Shown here piece after piece: positions 1 through 18,081 of a stretch of DNA of 64,000 nucleotides (the first letter of the stretch is position 1; every line of letters starts with the position of its first letter). Under the pieces are notes generated by a model. The model was not told where the DNA came from. It did not search any database and worked only from the letters and a program-made list of their open reading frames with translations. The translations under genes were made by a program, and so were the position numbers. This DNA is from Macrostomum lignano (Eukaryota). The DNA lies in contig NIVC01001570.1 in assembly GCA_002269645.1 (NCBI GenBank), positions 40,546 to 104,545 of the forward strand, given 5' to 3'.

Positions 1-214
1 TTGTCTTCAGTGCTGCAACTTACAGCACTTACAACTCTTTTTGTGTTTTTCTCTTTCTCTTTGCTCCCTTTTTCTCATTTTTTCCTTTTCCTTTCCCCTT
101 TTTCGTCTTTTGTTTTTTCGTTTTTTTGGCAGTTAATCAATTTTGCGACTTACTTGGTTGGCCGCCAAATCGGTCGGCCGGATCGGCCGACTCGGCCGAC
201 TGTTGCGCATGTAT

Positions 215-930
215 GGCTGGGGTCGAGAACAAAGGAATTGGAAATCGGGGATAATTGGGGAAAACTGAGAACAATGGAAAAGTAAACATTGGAGAAAAGG
301 TGATAATTAGGTGCGAAAACGAGAACAAAAGAAAGAGAAAATCGGAGAAAATGTGATAATTGGTGGGGGTCGAGAGAACAAAAGAAGCAAAAACGAGAAC
401 AATAGAAGCGGAGGTGGGGTGGGTGTCACATGAGAAATTTGGGAAGGAGAACAATAGCGTGAGAAAAGGTTGCGCAAGAGAGGGGGGTGAGTCATCGATG
501 AGTCACCGAGGGGGAGAAGGGGTCACACGACTTGCGTCACCGTTTGGGAGTTTGAGAGGGGATGGGGAGACGGTGAGCACACAAAGTACTGTAAGTAGAC
601 ACAGGGAAAGAGGGGACAGCGCAGGAAAAGAGTGCAGAGGGAGACAAAAAAAAGGAGGAGGTAGAGAAAGTACAGGAAGAATAGGGCGGGAGCAGAAGAG
701 ATAGGGTAGAGGGGGAGGTACAGAAAGGGGTAGGGGCTCCGGAAAGGCAGGTGTGGCGGCAGGAGAGACGGGACCAAGGCAGCAGGAGAGGTGCAGCAGA
801 GCGGGAGTCTCCAGGCCCGGTCGGAGACCTGGCCGAGTCTCGACAGCTCTGTGCAGAGGGTGCACGGGATAGGAGGCACTTTCGAAAAAGTTCCCATGCC
901 CTATCCCGCGACCAGGGCGTGGTTACTTCA
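215..930 (-). repeat. 3' LTR, partial (U3 portion), copy of 17367-18081
   Basis: By-eye alignment shows about 4 substitutions and one 1-nt A-run indel over ~716 bp. Begins TGAAGTAACC on the minus strand versus TGATGTAACC in the 5' LTR. Confidence 0.93.
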
Positions 931-947
931 CACCCCCACTGCCTTTT
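931..947 (-). promoter_or_regulatory. Polypurine tract (PPT)
   Basis: Minus strand AAAAGGCAGTGGGGGTG directly precedes the TG start of the 3' LTR. Confidence 0.75.
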
Positions 948-1534
948 GTGACGGAACTGGTTCCGTCATCATCGCTGCCCAACATGGAACCACACAGACG
1001 GGAGCGGGATCTCAACCGAACGTGAAATCACAGAATTAACAAACCGCGAGCGGGAATGGAAAAAGGCGATAAAATAGAGGGGATAGCAATAAATTCACAA
1101 AACGAGATACATAGGTTGGAGTGCAATACAGAATTTCAAAAATTTCAACTGTTGCTGTGGCTAAAGTGGGAGGGTGGAAACACAGACAGCGCAATAGTAG
1201 GGAGAAAAATAGCGAATTGTCAACAATAAATTATCATAATTGGATAGAAGCGCAGCTGGGAAAGAGAGGAAACGGGGAAGGGTGAGGGAAGTGGGGAAAA
1301 AGAAGGGGGAAGGGTTGCTAGCACACAGCCAAGGGCAGAGCCTCGGGGAGAATGACGATTACACAGGGGAAAAATACTAATGCAGCGCAGTAAATTAATA
1401 AGCTAATTTCGCCGGGAGTTCAACCGCACGGAGGCCTAGCGTCCTTGAAGGCTCGGACCCCGCTTCAGCCAGTCAGAGGGCTTCGGGGCGATCGGTTGTA
1501 GGCTGGGAGGCGCCGCGCCCTGCGCTGGCCACTG

Positions 1535-1647
1535 TATAAAAGGCGCCACTGATAACGGGAGCCGGCTGCCTGCAACCTACACGGAGTCGCAGTTTCCAAC
1601 CAAGGCACTCAGCGCGATTTTCCAAACTATACAACTACTCGGTAAGT
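1535..1647 (+). promoter_or_regulatory. Candidate antisense Pol II promoter, short non-coding first exon and splice donor
   Basis: TATAAAA at 1535-1541 after a GC-rich stretch; consensus donor CG|GTAAGT at 1641/1642, followed by AT-rich intron-like DNA. Confidence 0.5.
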
Positions 1648-1989
1648 CCCATCACCAACCTGATTTCCTTTCGCCTATACGTTAAACGAAATCTACCCAC
1701 TCGCCATGCCTTTCGTTTTAAACTGAGCCAATTGCAGTAATAATATATGGCCTTTCTTACGGTAAAAGTAGTGAGCAGCCAACACAGAGCCATTTTTAGG
1801 AATTTTTAGGATAATGACACAACAATGACTCGTATATTGGTTATTAAAGTTTAAAAATGAATATTATGGAAGAACCGAATATTAATAGGATAATTTCACA
1901 CACACACACACGACAAACACACAACGCAAGGGGGCGGAAAGGCGGGTCGGACCGGCCGGCGGACGTCGCTCAGCAGGTAGTCAGCATCC

Positions 1990-3339
1990 TTACTCGAAAT
2001 GGGCCTCTTGATTTAGCTGGTACGGGCCATATGCCGCCACCTGAGCCATGGCACTTGCCCATGCTTCCACATAACGTTGGGCTGCCGCGGCCGTGAGCAC
2101 CACTCGGTGCCATCGGCTAGGCAAGATGTCGTTGCGCAGCACGCCCCTCAACTGCGGCAGAGTCGGGATGCCCAGGGCTTGGCATTGGACGACGAAGGCC
2201 GCATTCCGTACTTGTTGCAGCCGTGTCAGAGTTGGTGCAGACAGGGGCGGCTGCGCGATTGCAAAATGCTGCAAAGTGCCACGGGGCACCTCGGCCAGGC
2301 CCGCGTAGCCGGGCTCAACGTCGCCCAGGGCCGCCAACACCCACCCACAGCGGCGATTGAACCGTTGCGAGAGAGTGGCGGCCCAGGCCACTGTGGCAAA
2401 CGGCGCATAGAGGAGGGGCGCAGAGGCCGGCGCGGAGGCCGCAAGAATGCCGTCGTGGATGACGAGAGCCTCTTCCCATTCGGCGCCCTCGCTCAGGAAG
2501 CCCCAGAGCAGCCCTGGCAGGTCCGCAGGAAGCATGCCCCAGCGGCTGGCCAAGCTGGCCAGGCCAATCAATAGCCGGGCTCTCTGGGTTGGTGTCAGTT
2601 GTCTAGTCATCTGAGAGGAGGCTGCGCAGCTGATGATCACCTTCTTGTAGACCGGCCGATCGCAGGTGCTGAAGATTGCTGTGATGGGGGCACAGGACGG
2701 CGGCCGGGCTGTCAGGTGCGATGGTTCCTCATCCACAACCTTGCGGAGGAACTTGGCGGCCTGCCGGACTAGGTCGCCGAGGGCGTATTTGTAGGCGCTC
2801 TGGGCCGCTGCCTCGATGTACATTAACAGCGTATTGTCAACCAATCCCAGCAGGGCCGCTTTTGACAGGATGAGCAGACAGGGCCGGTCCAGGTTGTCGC
2901 GAAGTTGGCGCTCTAGAGTCGCATGCCTGTCCTCGGCCTGGAGTGGGCCATGATAGGACTCAGGCCCGACCCAGTGCACCAGATCCATAGCTGTCGCCGA
3001 AGGTTCGCCAGCCACCTGACCCCAATCGACTTCTTCTCTTTGCAGGGCGATGTCCACACTTCGGCGGCTGTTGGGCAGAACATCACGCAGGCGGCGGGCC
3101 GCCTCGCCGAATTCGGCCGCCAGGTCCGAAATGTCCGCGGTGTCGCCCCCAGCATTGGCCGGGTCGATTGTCTCGTCACCTTCTTCGACCCTGGCGGAGG
3201 CCGCCGCTGGCGGCTCGGGGCCGTCCTCCGCCTCTTGGATGGCGTCACGGGGCCGCTTTCGGCTAACTGGGCTGGCAGGACGCTCAGACGGTAAGCTGGA
3301 GCATAGCTGAATTCGATTGATGGTAGGCTTCGTGTCCAT
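1990..3339 (-). CDS. 449-aa hypothetical protein carried by the LTR element (N-terminal RKRPR NLS-like motif, acidic/disordered N-terminus, Leu/Ala-rich probably helical body)
   Basis: Long intact intronless GC-rich ORF flanked by AT-richer non-coding DNA, with its own TATA/CCAAT promoter ~95 nt upstream. No family recognised. Confidence 0.8.
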   Translation of the reverse strand: MDTKPTINRIQLCSSLPSERPASPVSRKRPRDAIQEAEDGPEPPAAASARVEEGDETIDPANAGGDTADISDLAAEFGEAARRLRDVLPNSRRSVDIALQREEVDWGQVAGEPSATAMDLVHWVGPESYHGPLQAEDRHATLERQLRDNLDRPCLLILSKAALLGLVDNTLLMYIEAAAQSAYKYALGDLVRQAAKFLRKVVDEEPSHLTARPPSCAPITAIFSTCDRPVYKKVIISCAASSQMTRQLTPTQRARLLIGLASLASRWGMLPADLPGLLWGFLSEGAEWEEALVIHDGILAASAPASAPLLYAPFATVAWAATLSQRFNRRCGWVLAALGDVEPGYAGLAEVPRGTLQHFAIAQPPLSAPTLTRLQQVRNAAFVVQCQALGIPTLPQLRGVLRNDILPSRWHRVVLTAAAAQRYVEAWASAMAQVAAYGPYQLNQEAHFE

Positions 3340-3384
3340 GTCAAGCTGGATAGTTCAGAGAATGCTTCAGCGATTGAAGGACAG

Positions 3385-3552
3385 AATGATTTCTCTGATT
3401 GATGATTTCCAGCTCTGGCAGGCGTGGGTCTTCTTATAGTGCCGGGGCTGGCTTCCCATTGGTTGAGCACATTGGGAGGCACACCTGCTGCGGCCGGGGT
3501 CGCCGTTGGCTTGGGACCGCTCGCTCTAGTCTCCGTGCGCTCTGATTGGCTG
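3385..3552 (-). promoter_or_regulatory. Internal promoter for the 449-aa ORF
   Basis: Minus strand: CAGCCAATCAG (CCAAT at 3549-3545), AACCAATGGG (3462-3458), TATAAGA (3438-3432), Inr-like TCATT/TCAAT ~30-45 nt downstream, ATG at 3339. Confidence 0.65.
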
Positions 3553-3885
3553 GTTCCGCCGCTTCCTGTTTCCTCACCTGTGAGAAGGGGCCAGACCCGA
3601 GACCACCTCCGGTCGCGCCCGCGGCAGATCCGTACTCCAGCCGACAGAGATCGCACTCCCACCTCACATGCACACATTCAGATCAGGCACACAAATTAAT
3701 TTGATTAATATGAATAGAAGAGGGATTTGGGAGATTAGACTCCGGAGGATAAATGATGATGCGGCCCAACTCCCTTCGATTTCTTCCTTCAACGCCACGC
3801 GCACGCAGTTCTCATCCATGCCTCCGAGACCCTCATAAACTTAACAGCCGAAAGAATTCGAAAGAGGAATTAATCATTAATTTGA

Positions 3886-4253
3886 CTGCCACCAGTTTGA
3901 TGTACTATTATAAAAGAGAAAGGGGAACCTACCACCATCTTGGCGCATTACCAAAGAAAAGAAAAGGAGGATCAGCCACCATTTTGAGAGAGGTTGCTAG
4001 GGAAAACTGCCACCAATTGTACATTAACAGGGAAGAGAAAGAGGGAACCCGTCACCACTTAGAGTGGATTGCCCGGGGAAACTGCCACCATTTGCCCTTC
4101 TACCAGAGGAGAGGAAGACGAAAAACTGCCATCACTTAGAGGTGTATCATTAAAAGAAGGCGGGGAAGAAGGCTACCACTACTTGATCACCTAGAGCTCA
4201 AGGGGAGGAGAGGGAATGAAGAAAGGAAGAAACCCCCAGGAAGGCCACTACCA
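3886..4253 (-). repeat. Degenerate array of ~8-9 PBS-like motifs (TGGTGGCAG consensus) with 33-47-nt period and variable spacers
   Basis: Plus-strand CTGCCACCA-like motifs at 3886, 3929, 3973, 4007, 4049, 4082, 4126, 4173 (weak at 4245), most preceded by a purine tract. Confidence 0.7.
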
Positions 4254-4344
4254 CACGCCATAAAGTTAAAATCCCCATCTATCTACATCCTAATACCCGG
4301 CTAGTTCCCTACTTCTATTTTATCCCTTAAATTCTCATTTTCAG

Positions 4345-4751
4345 GATTCCGGCCGCTAGTAGCCGAGCCCATCCTTGAAGAGGAGTCCGACTACGAAGCG
4401 CCCGAAGACAGCCATTCAGAGCCGGACGCCCCCTCTGATTCTGGGCCGGCTGCGCCATCTGGTGGCATAGGCGCCGCGGCTCCCGGGCCATGCGACCGCC
4501 GGGCCGCCAGCGAACCAGCGTCCGGGGCCGGTTGGCATCCGGTACCACCGCCGTTGTCAGCCCGAGCGCACGCTCCGCCGCCGGTCGCCGCGGTGACGCC
4601 CGTGGCTGCCGCTCCACAGCCCTTGCCAACCCCTGTGGTGGAGGCCGACGGCTCCTGGCATTTGGTCGTGCTGTCGACGGCCCTAATAGCCGGTCTCACA
4701 ATGCACTGGCTACTGCTCTTGGAGCTATTTCTGCGGCTTCCCAACTGCTGA
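4345..4751 (+). CDS. Putative terminal coding exon of an antisense gene: acidic segment, Pro/Ala linker, C-terminal hydrophobic (TM-like) helix
   Basis: Acceptor TTCTCATTTTCAG| at 4344; open frame xFRPLVAEPILEEESDYEAPEDSHSEPD...WHLVVLSTALIAGLTMHWLLLLELFLRLPNC*; ATTAAA at 4936-4941. Start codon not located. Confidence 0.45.
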
Positions 4752-5744
4752 TGCTGGTGGTTCTTAATGCTTACTTACTATTTCTGAACTATCTGTCCCC
4801 ATAACTTGACTTTAATTACTTACCTGACTTTACATTGACTAAACCACTGGCCTACTCTAAACTAATTGCTGCCCCATTTGCCTGATAAACTTAATTACAT
4901 TGAAGGCCCCCCCCCCTATTGCCTCATCGAAACCAATTAAAAGTTTCCCAAAATCGGACTTTCACAAAGTGTGAACAAACACACGAAATCAGACCTAAAG
5001 GTGCTAATTTCCTACGGTCCCAGACTTCCATTGTTCCCAGAAAATCTTGAACAGCGGGGCAGGACCTCCTGTGGAGCAGACCCATAGAAATTTTACTAGT
5101 TTCCAAGTTAATCCTATATATAATACTAAAAATGAAAATCTTGCTTGCTTGCTTGTAATCGATTAGAGAAAAAGTGGTTTAACCGATTTTCATGAGACTT
5201 GCACTGTTCAATCAGAAATTTTCCCGGGACGGTACATGTATCTTGGCTAAGAAATTGCTAAATTCTAAAGGGATTAAATATTCGAAAAACATACTTTTTT
5301 GCAAAGGTCAAGCAAACTTTTCGACTTGAAATGCATTGTAAGAATGCTAGAGAAAAAACTGACGACTGGTTGAATTCTGATTCTGAAATAGATTGCATCA
5401 TAACTGAAATGTAACTCCGACTTGAATTGCGTCACAGTATTGAAAATGCAGTGTGGAAGCGTAGCACCAGACTTGATTTAGATTGCGTAACCATATTCTC
5501 AACTTTAATTGAGACTGACACTGACTTGCCTGGGAAATTGATTATGTCATAACTGCTTCGTGAGTGAGTGTTGAATTATATAAGTGCTACAATTTCATTT
5601 ATAAATTCGATAAGATCTAGCCTAGATGTGAACAGACTGGACTGCTAATGCAGCGACCTGGGTTCGAATCTTAGTAGTGAAAATTTTTTTATTAAAAGCT
5701 TTTATTAAAAAAATAATAAAGGACTAAAGGCGTCATGCAAAAAA

Positions 5745-6830
5745 TCAGAGAAGCGTCATGTAAACAATCATAGAAGCGTCATGTAAACAATCATAGAAGC
5801 GTCATGTAAAAATCATAGAAGCGTCATGTAAACAATCATAGAAGCGTCATGTAAAAATCATAGAAGCGTCATGTAAAAATCATAAAAGCGTCATGTAAAC
5901 AATCTTAGAAGCGTCATGTAAACAATCTTAGAAGCGTCATGTAAACATCATAGAAGCGTCATGTAAAAATCATAAAAGCGTCATGTAAGCAATCATACAA
6001 GCGTCATGTAAAAAATCATAGAAGCGTCATGTAAACATCATAGAAGCGTCATGTAAACATCATAGAAGCGTCATGTAAAAATCATAGAAGCGCATCCTGC
6101 AAAAATCGTAGAAGCGTCATGTAAACAATCATAGAAGCGTCATGTAAAAATCATAGAAGCGCATCCTGCAAAAATCGTAGAAGCGTCATGTAAATAATCA
6201 TAGAAGCGTCATGTAAAAATCATAGTGAGTAGAAGCGTCATGTAAAAAGTCATAGAAGCGTCATGTAAACAATATTAGAAGCGTCATGTAAAAATCATAG
6301 AAGCGTCATGTAAAAATCATAAAAGCGTCATGTAAACAATCTTAGAAGCGTCATGTAAACAATCATAGAAGCGTCATGTAAAAAGTCATAGAAGCGTCAT
6401 GTAAACAATATTAGAAGCGTCATGTAAAAATCATAGAAGCGTCATGTAAAAATCATAAAAGCGTCATGTAAACAATCTTAGAAGCGTCATGTAAACAATC
6501 ATAGAAGCGTCATGTAAAAAATCATAGAAGCGTCATGTAAACAATCATACAAGCGTCATGTAAAAAATCATAGAAGCGTCATGAAACAATCATAGAAGCG
6601 TCATGTAAACAATCATAGAAGCGTCATGTAAACAATCATAGAAGCATCCTGCAAAAATCGTAGAAGCGTCATGAAAAAAATCATCGAAGCGTCATGTAAA
6701 AATCATAGAAGCGTCATGTAAAAATCATAGAAGCGTCATGTAAAAAATCATAGAAGCGTCATGAAAAAATCATAGAAGCATCATGTAAAAAATCAAAGGA
6801 GCGTCATGAAAAAATCATAGAAGCCTCATT
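5745..6830. repeat. 22-23-bp minisatellite (AGAAGCGTCATGTAAAAATCAT) inside Helitron 1
   Basis: Direct tandem copies visible. Confidence 0.95.
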
Positions 6831-7727
6831 TTAAAACTAATGAAAGTGTCATTTAAAAAATTAAGAGGCATCATAGTAGAATAAAAGAAGCGTCATGTCA
6901 GACATGAAGGGTGTCATGTAAAAATTAAATGAAGCTATAGTGCTGTGCTGGGGAGAAAAACTGTGACGTCAAGGCTCACAGAGAATAACTGAGATTACGG
7001 GGGGGGTTCTGAGATGTCAAAGCAAAAGTCAGATGCTACTTCAAAGTTCATGTACTTTACTCCATTTTTTATTACATTCTTTGTTGGCTCGCCACGGGGG
7101 GTGCTGATAGAAGAAGAGTCATGTAAAAAATAAAAGTAGCACTATGTATACATAAAAGAAAAGTCATGTCGAAGTTAAAAGATTCATTTGGGAATGGCTA
7201 CGATGTCAAAGCTTGGTGGAAATCGTTATAGTGCTGTGATTCTTAAAGAAGGAATCACTAAAATGTCAAGGCTTAGGGGAGAAGAATTGCTGAGATTTCA
7301 AGGCTTTAGGTTGGGTTAAAGTTAGGTTTAGGTCAGGTGTGGGTTGAGGGTTATATTTTATCGGGTTTCAAGGTTAACAGGGGATTTTTTAGATTTCAAG
7401 GTTTATGGGGGCCATCGCCGACATGTCAAGGCTTACGGGGTGAATAGCTGAGATGTCAGGGCTCACGGGGGTATAAATGAGATTTCAAGGCTAAAGTCAG
7501 AAGCTACATGTAGTTTATTGAAAACTTTTTATTCCGATATTTGATGCCTCCTCAGGGGAGGGATTGCTGATAAAAAAAGCGTAATGTAGAAAATAAAAGA
7601 AGCTTCATGTCGAAGTTAAGAGATTCATTTGGGAATCCCTACGATGTCGAGGCTTGCAGGGAATCGCTATAATGCTGTAGTAGTGCTATAATGACTCTTA
7701 GAGAGAATTACTGAAATGTCAATGCTT

Positions 7728-7794
7728 CAGGGTTAGGTTAGGGTTAGGGTTAGGGTTAGGGTTAGGGTTAGGCTAGGGTTAGGGTTAGGGTTAG
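7728..7794 (+). repeat. Interstitial telomeric repeat (TTAGGG)n; degenerate copy near 7306-7345
   Basis: ~10 TTAGGG units. Confidence 0.9.
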
Positions 7795-8016
7795 AAGGTT
7801 GACAGATATTTTTAGATTTCCAAGGCTTATTGGGGGCATTGCTGAGATGTCAAGGGGGGAAGTTGATATGTTAAAGCTTGTGGGGGGGAATTACTGACAT
7901 GTCAAGGCTTACAAGGTTTGACAGGAGATTTTTTAAGATTTCAAGGATACATGTAGCTTATTAAAAAAACATGTATTGCATTTTTTGGCTCCCCAACGGG
8001 GGGCGTAGATTGCTAG

Positions 8017-11000
8017 TCCTATATACTAAAATGAGTTGTCTGTATGTGGGTAGGTATGCGATAGATTTTAGAAAAAATGGCTCAACTGATTTTCTTCAAA
8101 CTTGCACCATTCGATCAGAAATTTTCCTGGGACGGTACATGCATCTTGGCTAAGAAATTGCTCAATATTAAAGGGATTAAATATTCGAAAAACATGCTTT
8201 TTTACAAAGGTCAAGCAGCTCTTTCGACCTGAAATGCATTGTAAGAATGCTAGAGAAAAAACTGACTGACTGAATTTCAATTCTGATAAAGATTGCATCA
8301 CAACAAGTTGAAAACAGTGCCGAAGAAATGCACACACAACTTGATTTAAATTGCGTAACAATATTGCTAACTTAAATTGACACTGATACTGGCTGACTGA
8401 GAAATTGATTATGTCATAACTTTTTACTCTAACCGATTTGCTCTAACCGAATTGCGAAGAACCGGTTCGAATCTTAGTAGTGCAAAAAGATTTTTTTATT
8501 CAAAAACCTTAAAAACACAAAATGCTAAACACAAAAAAGCACAATGTCAAACATCAAAGAGCCACCATGTCGAAGATTAAAGAGCCATCATGTCTAACAT
8601 TAAAGAGCCACCATGTCTAACATTAAAGAGCCACCATGTCGAACATTAAAGAGCCACCATGTCAAGCATAAAAGGACCACCATGTCGAACATTAAAGAGC
8701 TACCATGTCAAAAATTAAAGAGCCACCATGTCTAACATTATAGAGCCACCATGTCGAACATTAAAGAGCCATCATTACATTAAGGTGCCACTAGGTCAAA
8801 CATGAAAGAGCCACCATGTCTAACATTTACGAGTCACCATGTCTAACATTTTCGAGTCACCATGTCAATTATTAAAGAGCCATCATGTCAAACATTAAAG
8901 AGCCATCATGTCAAACATTAAAGAGCCACCATGTCAAACATTAAAGAGCCACCATGTCAAACATTAAAGAGCCATCATGTCAAACATTAAAGGACCACCA
9001 TGTCAAACATTAAAGAGCCATCATGTCAAACATTAAAGGACCACCATGTCAAACATTAAAGAGGCACCATGTCGAACATTAAAAAGCCACCATGCTGAAC
9101 ATTAAAGAGCCACCATGTAAAAATTAAACAGCCACCATGTCTAACATTAAAGAGCCACCATGTGGAACATTAAAGATCCACCATGTCGAACATTATAGAG
9201 CCACCATGTTGAACATTAAAGAGCCACCATGTCAAACATTAAAGAGCCAGCATGTCAAATATTAAAGAGCCACCATTTCAAACATTAAAGAGCCATCATT
9301 ACAGACATTAAGGTGCCACCAGGTCAAACATTAAAGAGCCACCATGTCTAACATTAACGAGTCACCATGTCAAGTATATTCGTGACTCCATGTCAAACAT
9401 CAAATAGCCATCATACCAAACATTAAAGAGCCACCATGTCGAAAATAAAAAATCCACCATGTAGAACATTAAAGAGCCATCATGTCAAACATAAAAGATA
9501 CACAATTTCAAACCTAAAAGTAAGCGTCATGCCAATTTTAAAAGAGCCACTATAGAGCTAAGGAAATTGTTGCACTAGCTACTTATTGTCTGGTGGATGC
9601 TTACTACTTGGGGATGCTTACTATCTGGGGGATGCTTGCTATCCGGGAGGGGGGATGCTTCCTATCTGGGGGATGCTTGCTATCAGGGGGATGCTTGCTA
9701 TCTGGGGGATGCTTGCTATCTGGGAGAATATTAAAGAGCCACTATGTCGAACATTAAAGAGCTACCATGTCTAACATAAAAGAGGCACCATGCCAAACAT
9801 AAAAGAGCCACCCTGTCGAACATTAAAGAGCTACCATGCCAAACGTAAAAGAGCCACTATGTAGAACATAAAAGAGCCACCATGTCAAACATTAAAGAGC
9901 CACAATGTCAAACATTAAAGAGCCACCATGTCGAACATTAAAGAATCATCATGTCAAACATAAAAGAGCCACCATGTCAAACGTTAAAGAGACACCATGT
10001 CAGACATTAAAAAAAACCGAATCAAACATAAAAGAGCTACCATGTAGAACATAAAAGAGCCAAAAGAGCCACAAACATAAAAGAGCCACCATCTCAAACA
10101 TATATGTGACTCCATGTCAAACATAAAAGAGCCATCATGTCAAACATTAAAGAGCCACCATGTCGAACATTAAAGAACCATCATGTCTAACATTAAAGAG
10201 CTACCTTGTCAAACACTAAAGAGCCACCATGTCGAACATCAAAGAGCCACCATGTCAAACATAAAAGAGACACCATTTCGAAAATTAAAGAGCAACCATG
10301 TCAAACATTAATGAGACACCATGTCAGACATTAAAAAAACCCCGATTCAAACATAAAAGAGCCACCATGTAGAACATAAAAGAGTCACCATGTCAAACAT
10401 TAAAGAGCCAACATGTCAAACATAAAAGATACACAATTTCAAACCTAAAAGTAAGCGTCATGCCAATTTTAAAGGAGCCACTATAGAGCTAAGGAAATTG
10501 TTGCACTAGCTACTTATTGTCTGGTGGATGCTTACTATTTGGGGATGCTTGCTATCTGGGGGATGCTTGCTATCTGGGAGGGGGGATGCTTCCTATCTGG
10601 GGGATGCTTGCTATCTGGGGGATGCTTGCTATCTGGGAGGGGGGATGCTTCCTATCTGGGGGATGCTTGCTATCTGGGAGGGCGGATGCTTCCTATTTGA
10701 GGGATGCTTGCTATCTGGGGGATGCTTGCTATCTGGGGGAATATTAAAGAGCCACTATGTCGAACATTAAAGAGCCACCATGTCAACCATAGAAGAGCCA
10801 CCATGTCGAACATAAAAGAGCCGCCATGTCGAACATAAAAGAGCCACCATGTCGAACATAAAAGAGCCACCATGCCAAGCATAAAAGAGCCACCATGTCA
10901 AACATAAAAGAGCCACCATGTCAAACATAAAAGAGCCACCATGCCAAACATGAAAGAGCCACCCTGTCGAACATAAAATGCTTGCTATCTGGGGGATGCT

Positions 11001-11315
11001 TGCTATCTGGGGGATGGTTTGCTATTTGGGGGATGCTTGCTATCTGGGGGATGCTTGCTATCTGGGGGATGCTTGCTATCTGGGGGATGCTTGCTATCTG
11101 GGGGATGCTTGCTATTTGGGGGATGCTTGCAATCTGGGGGATGCTTGCTATCTGGGGGATGCTTGCTGTCTTGGGATGATTTATTTTTGCATTGCACTTT
11201 ATTTGAGCAGTTTGTCTGTTGTCTTTGAGAAGGCTTTATCTGGCTGTCTTTTTGTTACCTGTAGAGAGCAGAGATTCTATCCACATGTCCCCCAACGGGG
11301 GGCGAAGATTGCTAG
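8017..11315 (+). mobile_element. Non-autonomous Helitron (copy 2, related family, head-to-tail with copy 1)
   Basis: Starts TCCTATATACTAAAATG directly after the CTAG of copy 1; ~8085-8500 is homologous to ~5180-5690; ends CCCCAACGGGGGGCGAAGATTGCTAG|T. Confidence 0.85.
8555..11170. repeat. Interleaved 23-bp (TAAAGAGCCACCATGTCAAACAT) and 18-bp (GGGGGATGCTTGCTATCT) minisatellites inside Helitron 2
   Basis: Tandem copies; the block ~9480-9760 is duplicated at ~10400-10770. Confidence 0.95.
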
Positions 11316-11545: not shown

Positions 11546-12070
11546 TCAGCGGGGGTCGAATGGGAGACTCACACCTAGCAAGTAAACCTTTTCTGTTCGA
11601 TAGTCTATGATAGCATGCGTACTGGCTAGAAAAGCACTACCCAGGAGGGAAACTGCTGCTGAATTGCCAACGACCAGAAAGAGGATTCTCACCTCTTCTA
11701 GCCCAATAACTGCTGTGAGGGTGGCCTGGCCTAGCATCTCTAATTCATTGCCCGTGTAGGACACGGCCTTCACACATGGGGGCTCCAGGGCCTCCACACT
11801 CTGTCCGGTAATTTTAGTAAAGTCTTTGACTGTTAGCAAAGACAGCGCACTGCCCCCATCTGCCAGGAGGCGGGTGGGAACATTCTCAATTGGCAACTCT
11901 ACAACAATATCTCTCCCGCGTTGTCCTCTAGCTGGTCTTGGCTGATAGAAATCGGGCACCTTCTCAAATCTAAACTTCTTGCTGGGCGGACGTGGCAGGT
12001 TAAGCTGGGCCCTAGAGAGGGAACGGGGCTGAGTTCGGGCCGGGCCATTCAGCCCTCCCACGGGTTTCCC
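11546..12070 (-). CDS. Retropepsin-like aspartic protease, -1 frame relative to gag, terminated by TGA with no downstream RT
   Basis: LLADGGSALSLL (D[ST]G-type motif, here DGG) and LLGSAFL (LLGRDFL-type motif); frame overlaps the gag end at the slippery site. Confidence 0.85.
   Translation of the reverse strand, partial: GKPVGGLNGPARTQPRSLSRAQLNLPRPPSKKFRFEKVPDFYQPRPARGQRGRDIVVELPIENVPTRLLADGGSALSLLTVKDFTKITGQSVEALEPPCVKAVSYTGNELEMLGQATLTAVIGLEEVRILFLVVGNSAAVSLLGSAFLASTHAIIDYRTEKVYLLGVSLPFDPR
12006..12070 (-). promoter_or_regulatory. -1 programmed ribosomal frameshift signal
   Basis: G GGA AAC heptamer (12070-12064), 8-nt spacer, stem GGGCTGA/TCAGCCC; loop GGCCC could pair with downstream GGGCC (pseudoknot). 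Confidence 0.8.
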
Positions 12071-13494
12071 GAACCCGGGGGCTCTTCAGGCGTGGGAGGA
12101 GGAGGCATCAGAGCTTGCGCGCGCAGCTGGGCGAGCCTCTCCTGCCTCTCCCTGGTAGCCTCGTCTAACATATCTCTGCCCCAATCCTCTAAATCTTGCC
12201 TATGGCGATCGGGTGGCGCACGAAGCTGCAATTGCTGCTGCTGCACACCCGGCGCCGGCGGCGTGGGCGCCTCCTGAATTGCAAGCGGCGGGGGCTGGGA
12301 TTGGCGCCAGTTCCTACTGTTATTAGAGCCGCCCTGCCCCTGCCTCCAGTTCCTGTTGGGAGTGGCGGGGCGAGGGGGCCTCATCTGCTGGGGCAGCTGG
12401 GCAACAGACTCTGCTGTCGCCTTCATAGTTTCATTGAGCTGCACCAGCTGGTTGCGCAGATCCTTTTGCGTTTGCTCTAGCGCGCCCAACCTCTCTTGCA
12501 TCTCTGATAGGCCGTCACTGTCCTCCTCCGTCTCGTCAGCTTCCTGGTTCACCATCCTGACCCACTTGCGAGGGGGCCTGGGTGGCTGCTGAGGTTGCAG
12601 ACGGACTTCGGTGCGGGACTCAGACCTGGGCGGGCCACTACTGTCCCATTTCCCGGCTAAGTCTGCGGCTTCTAACAGGGCTTGCTGCTGTTCTAACACC
12701 TGCTCAATTGTCTGCCAGCGACGGCTCAACAGATCTTGTCTGACCTGGCGGGGGAGCTTAGCGTGTTCCAAGTAGGTGTACACGATTTCTTGTTCTCTCT
12801 GCTCACCCTGAATCTGAGGAAACATGGCCGTTATCTGAGATCTTATCATAGCAGCAAAAGCACTATGTGATTGGCCGGGTTTCTGGCTCAGATTCTTCAG
12901 CTTATTTCTCTTAGCCAGATCAGTGTTGGCCTCGCCCAACTGCTCTCCTAATCTAGATACGAACTGCTCAAAGGGCAATTGCCCGTCCAATCCTAAGGCT
13001 AAGTTCTGAAATTCACCTGGGAGGTGCGAGATGAGCACCTGCTTCCTAGCCTGATCTCCTACAGTTCTCTCCGCGTCCAGCTTGTAGATCATTCTCTCTA
13101 CCCATTGCACAAAACAGTGTTCGCCGGGAGAGAACTTCTCTACGTAGATTTTCGGCCTCTGAGCTTCTTGGCCCATGTTTAGCTGGTTAAACGCATTGGC
13201 TATAGCAGCAACTAAGTCTCCTAGCTGCGGGACTGCCTGAGGAGGATTCTGGGCTGCGTCCGGGGGAGCAGCGGCGGCTGCTGCGTCACCCTGATTGGGA
13301 GCGGGAGCTGCTACTCCTTCATCTGGTTCCTCAACTACTACTGCTTCTGGAGGCTGAGGGACCTGGTTACCAGCGGCTGCGGCCATTGCGGCTGCGGGGG
13401 CGGCAACTGCTGGGGTGTCAGCGGCCGAGGGTGGTTGACCAGGGGCGTCTGCGCACACAGCTTCTACGACCCTATCTCCACGCGCCCGTGACAT
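12049..13494 (-). CDS. gag: Gag (Ty3/Gypsy capsid-like), 481 aa from MSRARG
   Basis: KFSPGE..FVQWVERM and MHR-like LKNLSQKPGQSHSAFAAMIR; coiled-coil-like segment; no CCHC knuckle. The 66 extra in-frame upstream codons in the ORF track are low-complexity and probably non-coding. Confidence 0.85.
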   Translation of the reverse strand: MSRARGDRVVEAVCADAPGQPPSAADTPAVAAPAAAMAAAAGNQVPQPPEAVVVEEPDEGVAAPAPNQGDAAAAAAPPDAAQNPPQAVPQLGDLVAAIANAFNQLNMGQEAQRPKIYVEKFSPGEHCFVQWVERMIYKLDAERTVGDQARKQVLISHLPGEFQNLALGLDGQLPFEQFVSRLGEQLGEANTDLAKRNKLKNLSQKPGQSHSAFAAMIRSQITAMFPQIQGEQREQEIVYTYLEHAKLPRQVRQDLLSRRWQTIEQVLEQQQALLEAADLAGKWDSSGPPRSESRTEVRLQPQQPPRPPRKWVRMVNQEADETEEDSDGLSEMQERLGALEQTQKDLRNQLVQLNETMKATAESVAQLPQQMRPPRPATPNRNWRQGQGGSNNSRNWRQSQPPPLAIQEAPTPPAPGVQQQQLQLRAPPDRHRQDLEDWGRDMLDEATRERQERLAQLRAQALMPPPPTPEEPPGSGNPWEG

Positions 13495-15846
13495 GTGAAT
13501 GCCGGATAGCTGGGGGAGTACCCACCACCGGGAAGGAAAAGAAAAGAAAACCGGGGCAACTACAGGTAAAGACCGAAAAGTTGATCCGAAACACACAAAC
13601 ACACTCACACACACACAAACACAGACAAAACCCACATACTTGCGGCGTCGAAGAAAACAAATTGAAAAACGGGTGGCTCCACATAATTCCATTTAGGCAG
13701 TCCTAACGGCTTCACTCGGCAAAGCACACTGACTCAAACTGCGGCTACCACTACCAGTTGTCTATGGCACATCCTGACAGGGAAAAATTGGCTATTCAGA
13801 GAGACTTGACCTTCATTTTGCGGCCATGCTAGGGAACCCAAATGCCGACCGTAAACGGACTTACGGCACCTGTACAAATTCTCCCCTAGGGTTGCGCGCC
13901 GGACCCCATTTCCTTAAGAAAGCTACTACGAAGAAGCGTTGGCGCCTGGACCCAAAAACCCAAGTGGCGGGAGCAATCCCCATGGAGGTCCTCCCACTTT
14001 ACTGCCCTTGCACAGCCGGAAAACCGTCGGAGTCCAGTGGGGCTTCCACCTCAGGACTACCAATCTTGTACACGCAGCTTCACAAAAGGCGGGAATCCAG
14101 CTCCCCTACGTCTAGCAGAATCCACAAAAACCAAGACCTCCCCCTTCTGTTCAGAGCGAAGGCGCGCAGCGGGAGTCCAGACTAAACTGTCCCCGAAGTT
14201 TTCAGGTTAGGCGGATTACAAGCCTGAAACTCTCGCCCGCTTTCCTAGGATAAACAGACCTAAGTGAGTATCTTCCTGAAATGCTTGCCCCTCCGATACT
14301 CCACCTTTGCTGCAGCTCGAAATAGCATACTTGGGACCTTTATCTGATGGCGGAGAAAGTCCTACAGTTGTCAGCCTCTCCACTTTACTGTACTTGAACG
14401 CCCGGTTCTACCAGGAGACAGCGGTACCTCCATCTAGGTTATTCCAAGTTGCCAGAGACGTCAACCCGTCTTATTGACCTTGCGGGGCACTGGGGTGGCA
14501 CTCTATGTACCGGGGCTTTACATTAGGGGACTGCATGCAACCCTGCGTCTAAGCGCTTAGTGGGCTGCAGTGGCCAGAGGGGAAAAGAGTTGCGCAATAG
14601 CGCCTTCCTGGGCCAGGCTGACAAGTCGGGCAGGAGCGCCGTTCTACCGGGTCGGGCTGATTGGCACACCCACCTCCCCTATCAGACTGACAGCAGGGGG
14701 GAGGAATTACTAAAGGAGGAGAATGCAGCAGGAAACATTACGAGATCACTGGGGGCCACCAGACTTCCAGTACACCATTCCAATACTCACTGAACTCCAC
14801 TATCAATAGGATACTATGGGATCTACTATTTCCAGCCACTGCACCAGCCCAAATGCAACCAAAGCAGTTACTACCGGGTCTGCAATACAGTGGGGAGAGT
14901 CAGCAGACACGTTGGGATCGAATCCCAGCCATGAAGGCACCAGGGGTTACCGCAGAATTCAGGTCCGGGCTGATCGCAGGTATTCCATAGGAGGTGACAC
15001 TTTTTTTAGCCCGAGATTTTTGAGTCACACTGATACCCTACAGAGATACAATCACACCGCTATTCCCATTCCTGCGAGACTTTGGTATCCCCCAATGTTT
15101 CCAAGGCCATGACTACTGCTTCCCTTACTATGCATATATAGCGAGTTCCCCATAGCCCTTGATAGCTGTTCATTCTAATGGACAAACAAAACACGCTCCG
15201 GTCTCTACGCATTTCTAGGATTAACTGAGCGATCAGGGAGAGCGACTGTTACACTCCCCCGAGTAAAAGAAAGAGGTAGGACAAAGGAAAGAAATGCTTC
15301 GCTTCCAGCTTCCCTGTGCTTGCGTGATGAGGCTTCCGTACCTGGCTGGCTGTCCACCTCAACACTCACACAGTTCTGCTGTAGGCTAGGCGAGAGAAAG
15401 AAAGGGAGGGGAAATAAAGCATATTACCATGAAATAGAAAGTGAGTCCGGAAAATTCACTTTCGCAGTTCTTCACACACTCCGTTACCAGGTAGCTATTC
15501 TGATTGTAATCAAATCCGCTCGTCTACCACTTCACACTTTCTAGCGCTGAAACTGATCGGCTAAATTAATTTTAAATTGAATCAGGGGCTTTTGGCGAAT
15601 GAATGAATTTGGAAATTTCGAATGAATTGAACGAATTCGCAGCCCGAAAAATTTGAAAAGTTACATTAATATTTTTGGATTTTGTTGCCTCACGCCATGG
15701 GAGAAGAGAATGACGATTGGCGATTTTTACGATTGGTAGATTTAGACATGGCACTCTTTGCGCTTCGGCCACCATTCTGAGGGATGCCACAGGTGCGCTT
15801 GTCACATCTAAACCACCAGTCCGAAACTCAGCGCTGTTTGCACCAG

Positions 15847-15864
15847 ATCCCACCGCTGCCACCA
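15847..15864 (-). promoter_or_regulatory. Primer binding site, tRNA-Leu
   Basis: TGGTGGCAGCGGTGGGAT, 18 nt complementary to the 3' end (AUCCCACCGCUGCCACCA) of eukaryotic tRNA-Leu(AAG/TAG type), 3 nt from the LTR end. Confidence 0.92.
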
Positions 15865-15867
15865 TTT

Positions 15868-18081
15868 TGATGTAACCGCCCTTGTCGCCTGTCCGCTCCG
15901 TAGAGAGACGAACGCATGACTAGAGGGGCAATGACCGTAGGCTGCCTATGACCGGGCAATGACCTGACGGACCTCCAGCACCAGACTGTCCCGCCCACAT
16001 GATTAGTAGCTTTGGTAGCGCTTCGTGACCAGAGGGCCAAGGACCCACATGGACCCCACCTGTAGCCAAGGTGCAATAGTTGGTCACTCGGTCATAGTAT
16101 GACCGAGTGGCTGCCACCACTCTATGTGACCTGGCGCACCTGGATCTTTCTACCAGACCTCTCGAGGCTAGAGCCCCGCCTGGATTGGTTACCAGGGGAT
16201 TTAGGCTAACAGGGGAGACGCATGCAGCCGAGTACAGGGACTCTGCTTGGGGCATGATCGGGAACTCTGGGCTCAATCCTGGAGGATTTCTCAGCAGGGG
16301 ATCCTTTGTGGCTGTGAGCGAGGCTGACTTGCGACTTTGATTACTAAGAGTAGTATGAGGCGAACATGTACTGTCTACAGTTTAGATTGCTCAGGGCGAA
16401 GGGACGCGTTAGCATGGGGTTGCAACCTTCCTACTGCCATTCTGTGCCAAGACTCGCTAATCCCTCTACTGCACGCACACGCGGCCCCGCAGCACGCACT
16501 CACAGGCGGGCTTGCACGGGGAGAGGCCATTAGCTTACCCAAACTTCCTTATGCTTTGCCACCCCGGGAGAAAGGCTTAGCAAGCCATGAGTGAAATGAT
16601 GGTGAAAGATTGAATAATGATGAAGTTAGTTAATAGTTAATAATTAGGCCCTTAGGCAAATAAGCAGGCAATTAGGCGGCTTCACTATTGAGTAAAATAC
16701 AGCAAAAGATACGGTATCACAATTGGCTCAGCTCTCTAATCAGACAATGGAAAATAGGCAAACCCCGGATAAGCAAAGGCAATTAGAGCACAAATTAGTA
16801 GTAGGAACTTACCGGCAGCTGCACAGAGAGAGAGAGAGGCGGAGTGACCGAGGGCGGCTGTAGGCTGCAGTCAGGCAGACGGTGAAGCGGCGATGCGCTG
16901 GAGCGACGAGGCGCTGATGTAGATCAGGCGATGCTGATGATGCTGGGCGGTATCAGACCGCTGGCCGATAGGCGAGCTCACTTGGGGAGCTAAGGATAAC
17001 TTGGCGGTAACAGACCGCGGACCGGCAGGGATTCGTCTTATAGACGAATGGGTCAGAACTCAATCTGACAGCAAGTCCAAAGAAGGACGAGGAGAGGAAC
17101 AGAGATAACTCAGTTGAGTATTCTCATGCCGAAATCGCTTCCTTTTATAGACCTCACAGCCGCCTCCTCAAGGTCGTTACCATGGCTCCCTCTCTCTGAT
17201 TGGCTGCCGGCAGAATGACGTCAGAATGAGTCATGATGAGAAGCATGAGACCGGCATAGCAACATGAGAAATCGGGAAATTGCGCAATCCGGAGGTGGGG
17301 TGGGGGGATAATTGGCGCAGCGGGTGGTCGCGAAAGTGTTGCGCAAGCAAACATTGAGAACAATAGGGCTGGGGTCGAGAACAAAGGAATTGGAAATCGG
17401 GGATAATTGGGGAAAACTGAGAACAATGGAAAAGTAAACATTGGAGAAAAGGTGATAATTAGGTGCGAAAACGAGAACAAAAGAAAGAGAAAATCGGAGA
17501 AAATGTGATAATTGGTGGGGGTCGAGAGAACAAAAGAAGCAAAAACGAGAACAATAGAAGCGGAGGTGGGGTGGGTGTCACATGAGAAATTTGGGAAGGA
17601 GAACAATAGCGTGAGAAAAGGTTGCGCAAGAGAGGGGGATGAGTCATCGATGAGTCACCGAGGGGGAGAAGGGGTCACACGACTTGCGTCACCGTTTGGG
17701 AGTTTGAGAGGGGATGGGGAGACGGTGAGCACACAAAGTACTGTAAGTAGACACAGGGAAAGAGGGGACAGCGCAGGAAAAGAGTGCAGAGGGAGACAAA
17801 AAAAGGAGGAGGTAGAGAAAGTACAGGAAGAATAGGGCGGGAACAGAAGAGATAGGGTAGAGGGGGAGGTACAGAAAGGGGTAGGGGCTCCGGAAAGGCA
17901 GGTGTGGCGGCAGGAGAGACGGGACCAAGGCAGCAGGAGAGGTGCAGCAGAGCGGGAGTCTCCAGGCCCGGTCGGAGACCTGGCCGAGTCTCGACAGCTC
18001 TGTGCAGAGGGTGCACGGGATAGGAGGCACTTTCGAAAAAGTTCCCATGCCCTATCCCGCGACCAGAGCGTGGTTACATCA
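15868..18081 (-). repeat. 5' LTR (2214 bp)
   Basis: 10-bp terminal inverted repeat TGATGTAACC/GGTTACATCA; PBS adjacent; U3 duplicated at 215-930. Confidence 0.9.
17143..17233 (-). promoter_or_regulatory. LTR core promoter
   Basis: AP-1 TGAGTCA 17227-17233, CRE TGACGTCA 17216-17223, CCAAT 17203-17199, TATAAAA 17149-17143; splice donor CCG|GTAAGT at 16812. Confidence 0.7.

Follow-up and report, generated by a model that had tools for sequence, protein, structure and literature searches.

A selected accessory gene with a predicted SGNH-like domain in a protease-bearing, polymerase-less LTR element of Macrostomum lignano, and a possible two-part carrier

Introduction

Extra genes other than env are known from LTR elements of bdelloid rotifers, where Vesta elements carry an ORF3 of the GDSL/SGNH type and Athena-L elements contain dead GDSL ORFs (PMC5408684; our summaries of published systems draw on parts of the papers cited). 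A role in particle assembly or trafficking has been proposed for retroelement esterases. The ORF1p esterase of ZfL2-1 binds liposomes independently of its active site (PMC3905857), and the OSK domain of Oskar, a dead SGNH domain, binds RNA without a catalytic triad (PMC10792757). The gene described here (referred to as the ORF) resembles the Vesta gene in that a non-env ORF with an SGNH-type domain (here predicted) occupies the ORF3 position in an element of Gypsy type as a separate, here putative, transcription unit. The Vesta proteins, however, keep the GDSL catalytic residues and the elements are complete, whereas the present protein lacks these residues and has a predicted helical domain ahead of the SGNH part, and its carrier has no pol. 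With ZfL2-1 and Oskar the common point would be an SGNH fold serving as a binding module, but these are a non-LTR ORF1 and a host protein, respectively, and neither is among the listed fold matches of the ORF.

For the carrier, the closest systems are pairs of defective genomes. Du et al. are said to have described LTR swapping in soybean in 2010. BARE-1/BARE-2 and TR-GAG are non-autonomous LTR families that use proteins in trans (PMC4350172), and these systems and ours have in common non-autonomous families whose ends are those of a partner. In the published cases one partner is complete (or unknown), whereas our searches gave no complete partner for the families described here, each of them holding the part that the other lacks. 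The plant pararetroviruses ePVCVL and ePVCVL2 are complementary and defective, with non-coding control regions homogenised by recombination (PMC5491270). They are thus similar as two complementary reverse-transcribing genomes with recombination-homogenised control regions; however, they are plant DNA viruses in which coat protein and RT are split and both parts have the protease, while here integrating animal LTR elements are split into protease versus RT-RNase H (RH)-integrase (IN), with Gag in both. Our search of the open-access literature found no complementary pair of LTR elements, these pararetroviruses coming nearest; a description may exist in Repbase reports, in subscription journals or in supplements on bioRxiv. 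A survey of LTR elements in M. lignano (PMC12801592) took RT as its starting point and, in the parts covered here, does not mention protease-less families. Because it starts from RT, families such as that of the present element would be missed.

Foamy viruses have an internal promoter ahead of the 3' accessory gene Tas, and HTLV-1 HBZ is a spliced antisense gene transcribed from a 3' promoter. Antisense ORFs are also found in Retand elements (PMC11963269). The present element resembles these in its putative internal promoter before a 3' accessory gene and in its spliced antisense gene with a 3' promoter, but no sequence or fold link to them was found, and a second family of its kind lacks both the promoter and the nuclear localisation signal (NLS).

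Results

Anatomy of the carrier element

The window, by which we mean the whole 64,000-nucleotide stretch analysed, contains on its minus strand an element with the order 5' LTR, primer-binding site (PBS), long leader, gag, protease frame, spacer, ORF, polypurine tract (PPT) and 3' LTR (Table 1). The element encodes Gag, protease and the ORF; RT, RNase H and integrase are absent, and were likewise found in none of the six other copies examined, which are about 13 kb long. The PBS is presumably tRNA-Leu-like. A 4-bp target site duplication (TSD) flanks the window copy and the copy on C100, while none was seen for the copy on C650. With TG...CA LTRs, PBS, PPT and a short TSD, the ends are those of Ty3/Gypsy elements; the RT-RH-IN order of a Ty3/Gypsy pol is missing from the window element and is found in the partner families A1 and A2 described below. 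No stable RNA structure was predicted 3' of the slippery site (z 0.22), and neither AATAAA nor ATTAAA was found between the 3' end of the ORF and the LTR.

The window copy has been altered by insertions. The Helitron-like insertion consists of tandem units with TC...CTAG ends (identified by eye), is rich in minisatellites and contains (TTAGGG)n near 7730-7790. The 3' LTR is split at window position 211 (L031:3724-10000) by an insertion of about 6.5 kb with terminal inverted repeats and an 8-bp target duplication; it has no Pfam match, and we take it to be hAT-like. The stretch 3880-4255 contains some nine short repeats that are similar to the core of the PBS (CTGCCACCA on the plus strand), one of which provides the microhomology for an ORF deletion.

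Table 1 Features of the element and of its accessory genes, in window coordinates.
Feature	Positions	Strand	Basis or remark
3' LTR, first 719 bp	212..930	-	remainder left of the window, past an insertion of about 6.5 kb
3' block in common with A1	212..1764		98% identical
Polypurine tract	931..940	-	
Antisense TATA (1535-1541) and non-coding exon 1, donor 1641/1642	1535..1641	+	GT-AG joint in run X1
Span deleted in the commonest ORF-less subfamily	1849..3821		the other three deletions end elsewhere
449-aa accessory ORF	1990..3339	-	stop-free translation; dN/dS 0.064 for residues 96-449 against L022
Predicted SGNH/GDSL-like alpha/beta domain, residues 293-437	2029..2463	-	moderate prediction; catalytic Ser, Asn and His missing
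Predicted helical bundle, residues about 145-290	2470..2907	-	structure model; no specific match
Antisense exon 2, ATG at 3050, 80 codons	3046..3290	+	joints found in X1 and in X2; L022 retains the reading frame and the splice sites
RKRPR basic cluster, ORF residues 27-31	3247..3261	-	overlaps antisense exon 2; not kept in family N2
Putative internal promoter	3400..3549	-	motifs in sequence; conservation in L022
Antisense exon 3, 134 codons, acidic/Pro-rich, hydrophobic C-terminal tail	4345..4751	+	joint in X2
Later Helitron-like insertion, tandem repeats, foreign to the element	5113..11312 (6.2 kb)		not in other copies
Aspartic protease frame (LADGGS)	11546..12085	-	likely entered by -1 frameshift
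gag, 481 aa, no CCHC knuckle	12049..13494	-	dN/dS 0.09
Slippery heptamer G GGA AAC where gag ends, phased for -1 entry into the protease frame	12064..12070	-	sequence
5' block in common with A1 (LTR, leader, first 53 gag codons)	13337..18081		99% identical
Primer-binding site	15847..15864	-	
5' LTR, 2214 bp, TGATGTAA...TTACATCA	15868..18081	-	99.5% identical to the LTR of A1

Two pairs of complementary families

A search of the genome (764 Mb in 5269 contigs) with gag led to family A1; its LTR and that of the window element are 99.5% identical. We refer to families with Gag, protease and ORF as N (N1 being the window family) and to their partners as A. N1 and A1 have LTR, PBS, leader and 3' end in common, and the two shared blocks (Table 1) are 97-99.5% identical overall. 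A1 is a single Gag-RT-RH-IN frame with no protease motif. No Pfam protease was found in A1 or A2, and a protease profile run over all six frames of five A elements reached at best -0.7 bits, while the same profile detected both of two held-out normal elements at 66-104 bits. The A1 RT is present at 10 loci; the direct Gag-to-RT junction occurs in nine and is unbroken in eight of these, and one locus is partial. Outside relatives of this junction were searched for and none was found. Gag, protease, RT, RH and IN are thus not combined in one element in either N or A, as autonomy would require.

The same split was found a second time. Family N2 has LTR, leader and 3' end in common with A2 (RT at two loci), which is also without protease, and the LTRs of this pair are unrelated to those of the first, with which they do not align. 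Between N2 and N1, Gag is 38% and protease 41% identical. In midpoint-rooted trees of RT and Gag (7 and 8 rows, respectively), A1 and A2 RT form a clade (100/100), and all N and A Gags are likewise united (100/100), with four normal families outside. As the RTs are sisters, all four Gags are one clade and the LTRs do not align, the split should predate the divergence of the pairs, each of which afterwards maintained matching ends of its own. The two LTRs within an element are 99.4-99.8% identical in all seven elements tested. A CCHC knuckle is absent from the N and A Gags and present in three of the four normal families checked. As a side observation, the last codons (about 37) of the N2 ORF lie just 3' of pol in A2 (L061:5417-5602), a recombination scar.

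The best 150 scored of 4136 RT candidates included no complete sibling with both protease and RT, and the next RT relatives among them were at most 55% identical. As judged from their anatomy, N and A are likely to complement each other mutually, keeping in mind that a complete element may be absent from the assembly. We consider it probable that they form an obligate two-part system.

Selection on the ORF and its relatives

The ORF, with no internal stop, lies as originally annotated between protease and PPT of a single LTR element. It is also, as had been claimed, not an env, for which a signal peptide and a TM anchor are the criterion: since its maximum 19-residue hydropathy (KD19) is only 1.71 and internal (1.32 and 1.45 in homologues), it has no clear TM segment.

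Against the genome contigs the ORF gave 79 matches among 94 candidates on 37 contigs, including 15 full-length copies at 99% identity or more and one intact copy at 77% (L022), although these counts are inflated by assembly redundancy. The comparison with L022 over residues 96-449 gave dN 0.106, dS 1.67 and dN/dS 0.064 (bootstrap 0.049-0.089), where the method is one of simple counting and dS is close to saturation. The shifted sense frames gave 1.7 and 5.1, and differences per codon position were 56/22/183. All 15 near-identical copies are intact, with 12 synonymous and 7 nonsynonymous variants, and the N2 ORF is also selected (dN/dS 0.105 and 0.092). Neutral evolution among copies, which the initial annotation named as grounds against its reading, is thus not what was found; selection is strongly purifying, and the extra gene is almost certainly functional.

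The initial annotation called the ORF an orphan and proposed a search for homologues in other elements; such homologues exist, and the label no longer applies. The ORFs of N2, at the same element position, are 22-23% identical to it (E 3.5e-11 to 4.2e-8), and P0005, on a public contig, is a full-length member of the cluster with 33% identity over 341 aa (E 6e-42). Among 1.84 billion representative proteins, three were returned, two of them true relatives and one (P0003, a bacterial TPR repeat protein) a repeat artefact that was rejected; no cellular homologue was among these representatives. No match was obtained in Pfam, the ESM Atlas, metagenome and viral contigs or PHROGs (0/8 family members), and PDB sequences gave a best E of only 0.5-0.8. 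Word-index protein searches also returned nothing, but should be regarded as insensitive, since one of them missed the family's own member P0002. A broken relic of ORF and promoter, 73% identical, lies at L042:7084-8686 with no LTR or gag within 30 kb. A pol beside the relic copy on C201 was dismissed as an unrelated LINE-type frame.

Other ORF3s were seen in the genome. A different Gypsy family has a 570-aa ORF3 (L056:6719-8431) with weak matches to DnaJ (E 0.0026) and TatD DNase (5.7e-5). Two further Gypsy families (L059:7585-8454 and L064:1672-2910) have Pro-rich ORF3s with similar C-terminal ends, which by profile are unrelated to the ORF. An ORF at L109:352-1764 matches SGNH weakly (E 0.044), in what looks like a degenerate form, and is a possible local source of such domains; it precedes an RT frame that we take to be Penelope-like.

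Predicted fold

Folding of the single sequence reached a pLDDT of 36.7, and the best model from a 15-row alignment 57.8 with pTM 0.57 (pLDDT 40-44 for the other four models). The initial annotation proposed an AlphaFold and Foldseek check; Foldseek against PDB and BFVD returned nothing at E 0.001. A wide structural search divided the protein into two parts, a helical bundle of generic type and a C-terminal domain. The latter matched SGNH/GDSL hydrolases at least five times, with alignments beginning at about residue 293 and spanning most of the target. Model residues 229-373 matched OatA with Z 6.3 (135-139 of 179 residues, rmsd 4.0-4.1), a value inside the range reached by unrelated models; other SGNH matches were 1yzf (5.2), 3p94 and 6vjp (4.6). 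Two helical matches outranked SGNH, and TPP-binding and receiver domains were also matched at Z 4.5-5.7. No viral nucleoprotein was among the listed BFVD/PDB matches of this middling model, and the idea of a captured Borna/chuvirus nucleoprotein found no support. DNA-binding folds were likewise absent from the structural matches.

Profiles were built from 31 SGNH, 25 TPP and 23 receiver domains. Locally, SGNH scored 16.1, whereas one of 40 shuffles reached 18.6, the highest value among them. The global score is 11.25 over 135 columns, versus 3.9 and 2.9 for the decoy folds, and exceeds all of 100 column and 100 block shuffles. In hhalign the first strand was placed on block II rather than block I; blocks III-V match in order (strand to conserved Gly, strand-Pro, helix-Gly-strand, final helix). 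Pfam gave no SGNH match. The family columns read HDG, GD/GE and L, with no conserved catalytic Ser (GDS), oxyanion Asn (GxND) or His (DxxH), and an active esterase is thus not indicated. On balance, the models and profiles favour an SGNH/GDSL fold without catalytic residues for the C-terminal ~145 aa.

Putative promoter, basic cluster and antisense gene

The CCAAT-CCAAT-TATA-Inr motifs reported upstream of the ORF are indeed there, with TATA (TATAAGAA) at 3431-3438, CCAAT at 3458-3462 and 3545-3549 and an Inr-like TCATCA at 3400-3405 (all minus strand); a third CCAAT at 3471-3475 had been overlooked. In shuffles of 3340-3640, TATA with at least two upstream CCAAT boxes occurred in 12 of 20000, a rule that was set after the sequence had been viewed. 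The divergent copy L022 keeps the TATA and two of three CCAAT boxes, in a block that is 86-88% identical. This identity may stem partly from a recombination boundary, because dS is 0.15 in gag there as against 1.67 in the ORF. In N2, TATA[AT]A is absent from the roughly 600 nt that precede the ORF. From its motifs, the promoter may be real for N1. The NLS-like RKRPR is present as originally annotated, but L022 has only RKR and N2 has no basic cluster, while P0005 has KTRR close to its N-terminal start.

On the plus strand, two GT-AG joints (1641->3046 and 3290->4345) delimit a spliced antisense gene, each seen in one contig of one run with sides of 26-28 nt. Exon 3 is under selection, with a dN/dS of 0.225 (bootstrap 0.11-0.43), and has a KD19 of 2.02. 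Exon 2 overlaps ORF codons 17-96, the disordered N-terminus of the protein including RKRPR; because the same stretch has a coding function on the antisense strand as well, the cluster is weakened as evidence for an NLS. The gene (1535-4751) has about 215 codons, and its TATA and first donor occur in A1 as well. In N2 (L049, L082), the spacer between protease and ORF contains a conserved antisense frame of another kind, about 200 codons long. In two of four runs (of 24 listed, their RNA status being guessed) the leader intron was uncovered and the ORF covered, by unstranded contigs, which fits a spliced ORF-containing RNA.

Copies without the ORF

Among 20 fetched Gag-protease loci without an ORF match, 16 have a clean deletion of the ORF and four are uninformative (contig ends or truncation). 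The deletions fall into four breakpoint classes of 12, 2, 1 and 1 loci, and several N2 copies are also without the ORF. As at least four independent deletions occurred in copies that are otherwise complete as elements, the ORF is dispensable in cis, and as ORF-less copies have amplified, it brings no obligatory cis benefit. Being dispensable per copy and yet long conserved, the ORF fits a product that would be shared in trans and exploited by cheaters.

Discussion

Our reading is that of a selected accessory gene, with a predicted helical and a predicted dead SGNH/GDSL-type domain, on the Gag-protease half of a split Ty3/Gypsy element; the RT, RNase H and integrase of this element lie in a separate protease-less family with the same LTRs, and the halves likely complement each other. 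Taken with all of its parts, this reading falls a little short of an even chance. The RNAs of N and A and both Gags would enter one particle, in which the N protease would mature the A polyprotein and the A enzymes would copy and insert either RNA, with template switching keeping the shared ends identical. The ORF would be made from its own short transcript and act in trans as a non-enzymatic binding module, for membrane or RNA, that aids particle assembly or trafficking. Such a role, based on analogy with other SGNH proteins, is put forward tentatively.

The initial annotation proposed instead a nuclear regulator, a transactivator or silencing suppressor resembling Tas, which would be made from the internal promoter and act on the LTRs shared by N and A. 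Its idea of a selected, functional accessory gene other than env stands, while the foamy-virus analogy does not hold up, as N2 lacks both the NLS and the TATA and structure comparison offers, as its best candidate, a degenerate SGNH hydrolase. The annotation mentioned neither the complementary partner of the element nor the antisense gene that overlaps the ORF. The TATA/CCAAT set, the basic cluster of N1 with KTRR near the start of P0005 and the acidic, disordered N-terminus would all suit such a regulator, and both action in trans beside ORF-less copies and a dead SGNH fold are compatible with it. However, the family-wide absences in N2, the constraint that the antisense frame puts on the RKR codons and the structural matches, which are free of DNA-binding folds, make this role unlikely. 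An RNA chaperone or packaging protein of non-SGNH fold, captured for example from a virus and replacing the zinc-knuckle nucleocapsid, could explain why the N and A Gags are without CCHC, in contrast to three of four normal families, and would agree with the 35 Arg in 449 aa and with the lack of a cellular homologue among the 1.84 billion representatives. Against this, the listed BFVD and PDB matches held no viral nucleoprotein and the C-terminal order of strands and helices follows SGNH blocks III-V, so that we regard it as decidedly improbable.

The alternative for the carrier is that N is an ordinary non-autonomous parasite with cargo, and that the protease of A is supplied by the host, by a different Gypsy family or by a complete sibling missing from the assembly. 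N loci outnumber A loci by about 58 to 10, as parasites might, many protease-bearing Gypsy families are present in the genome, and the genome searches scored only the best candidates. Nonetheless, a protease is useless to a parasite and was kept in both N families, the same complementary loss is seen in two pairs with different LTRs, and the scored candidates held no complete sibling; a parasitic N is thus rather unlikely. We therefore return to the two-part reading: there is a good chance that N and A represent an old, obligately bipartite (segmented) lineage of animal LTR elements, in which Gag is duplicated, protease, dead-SGNH gene and antisense gene are separated from RT-RNase H-integrase, and recombination keeps the shared LTRs in step, with at least two pairs recently active.

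The ORF itself probably adds a new and degenerate member to a known type of cargo, and the two-part carrier is the notable result. With natural ORF-less copies available for comparison, this gene lends itself well to testing what a non-env ORF3 does. As annotation that starts from RT misses N, and A resembles an ordinary autonomous element, many genomes may hide such pairs, for which a search for protease-less pol together with LTRs in common would be a simple screen. Mutually dependent genomes are known in multipartite viruses and have been proposed for some plant pararetroviruses, while our search of the open-access literature gave no such case among LTR elements; if our reading is true, persistence in the form of two genomes that need each other is possible for LTR retrotransposons too.
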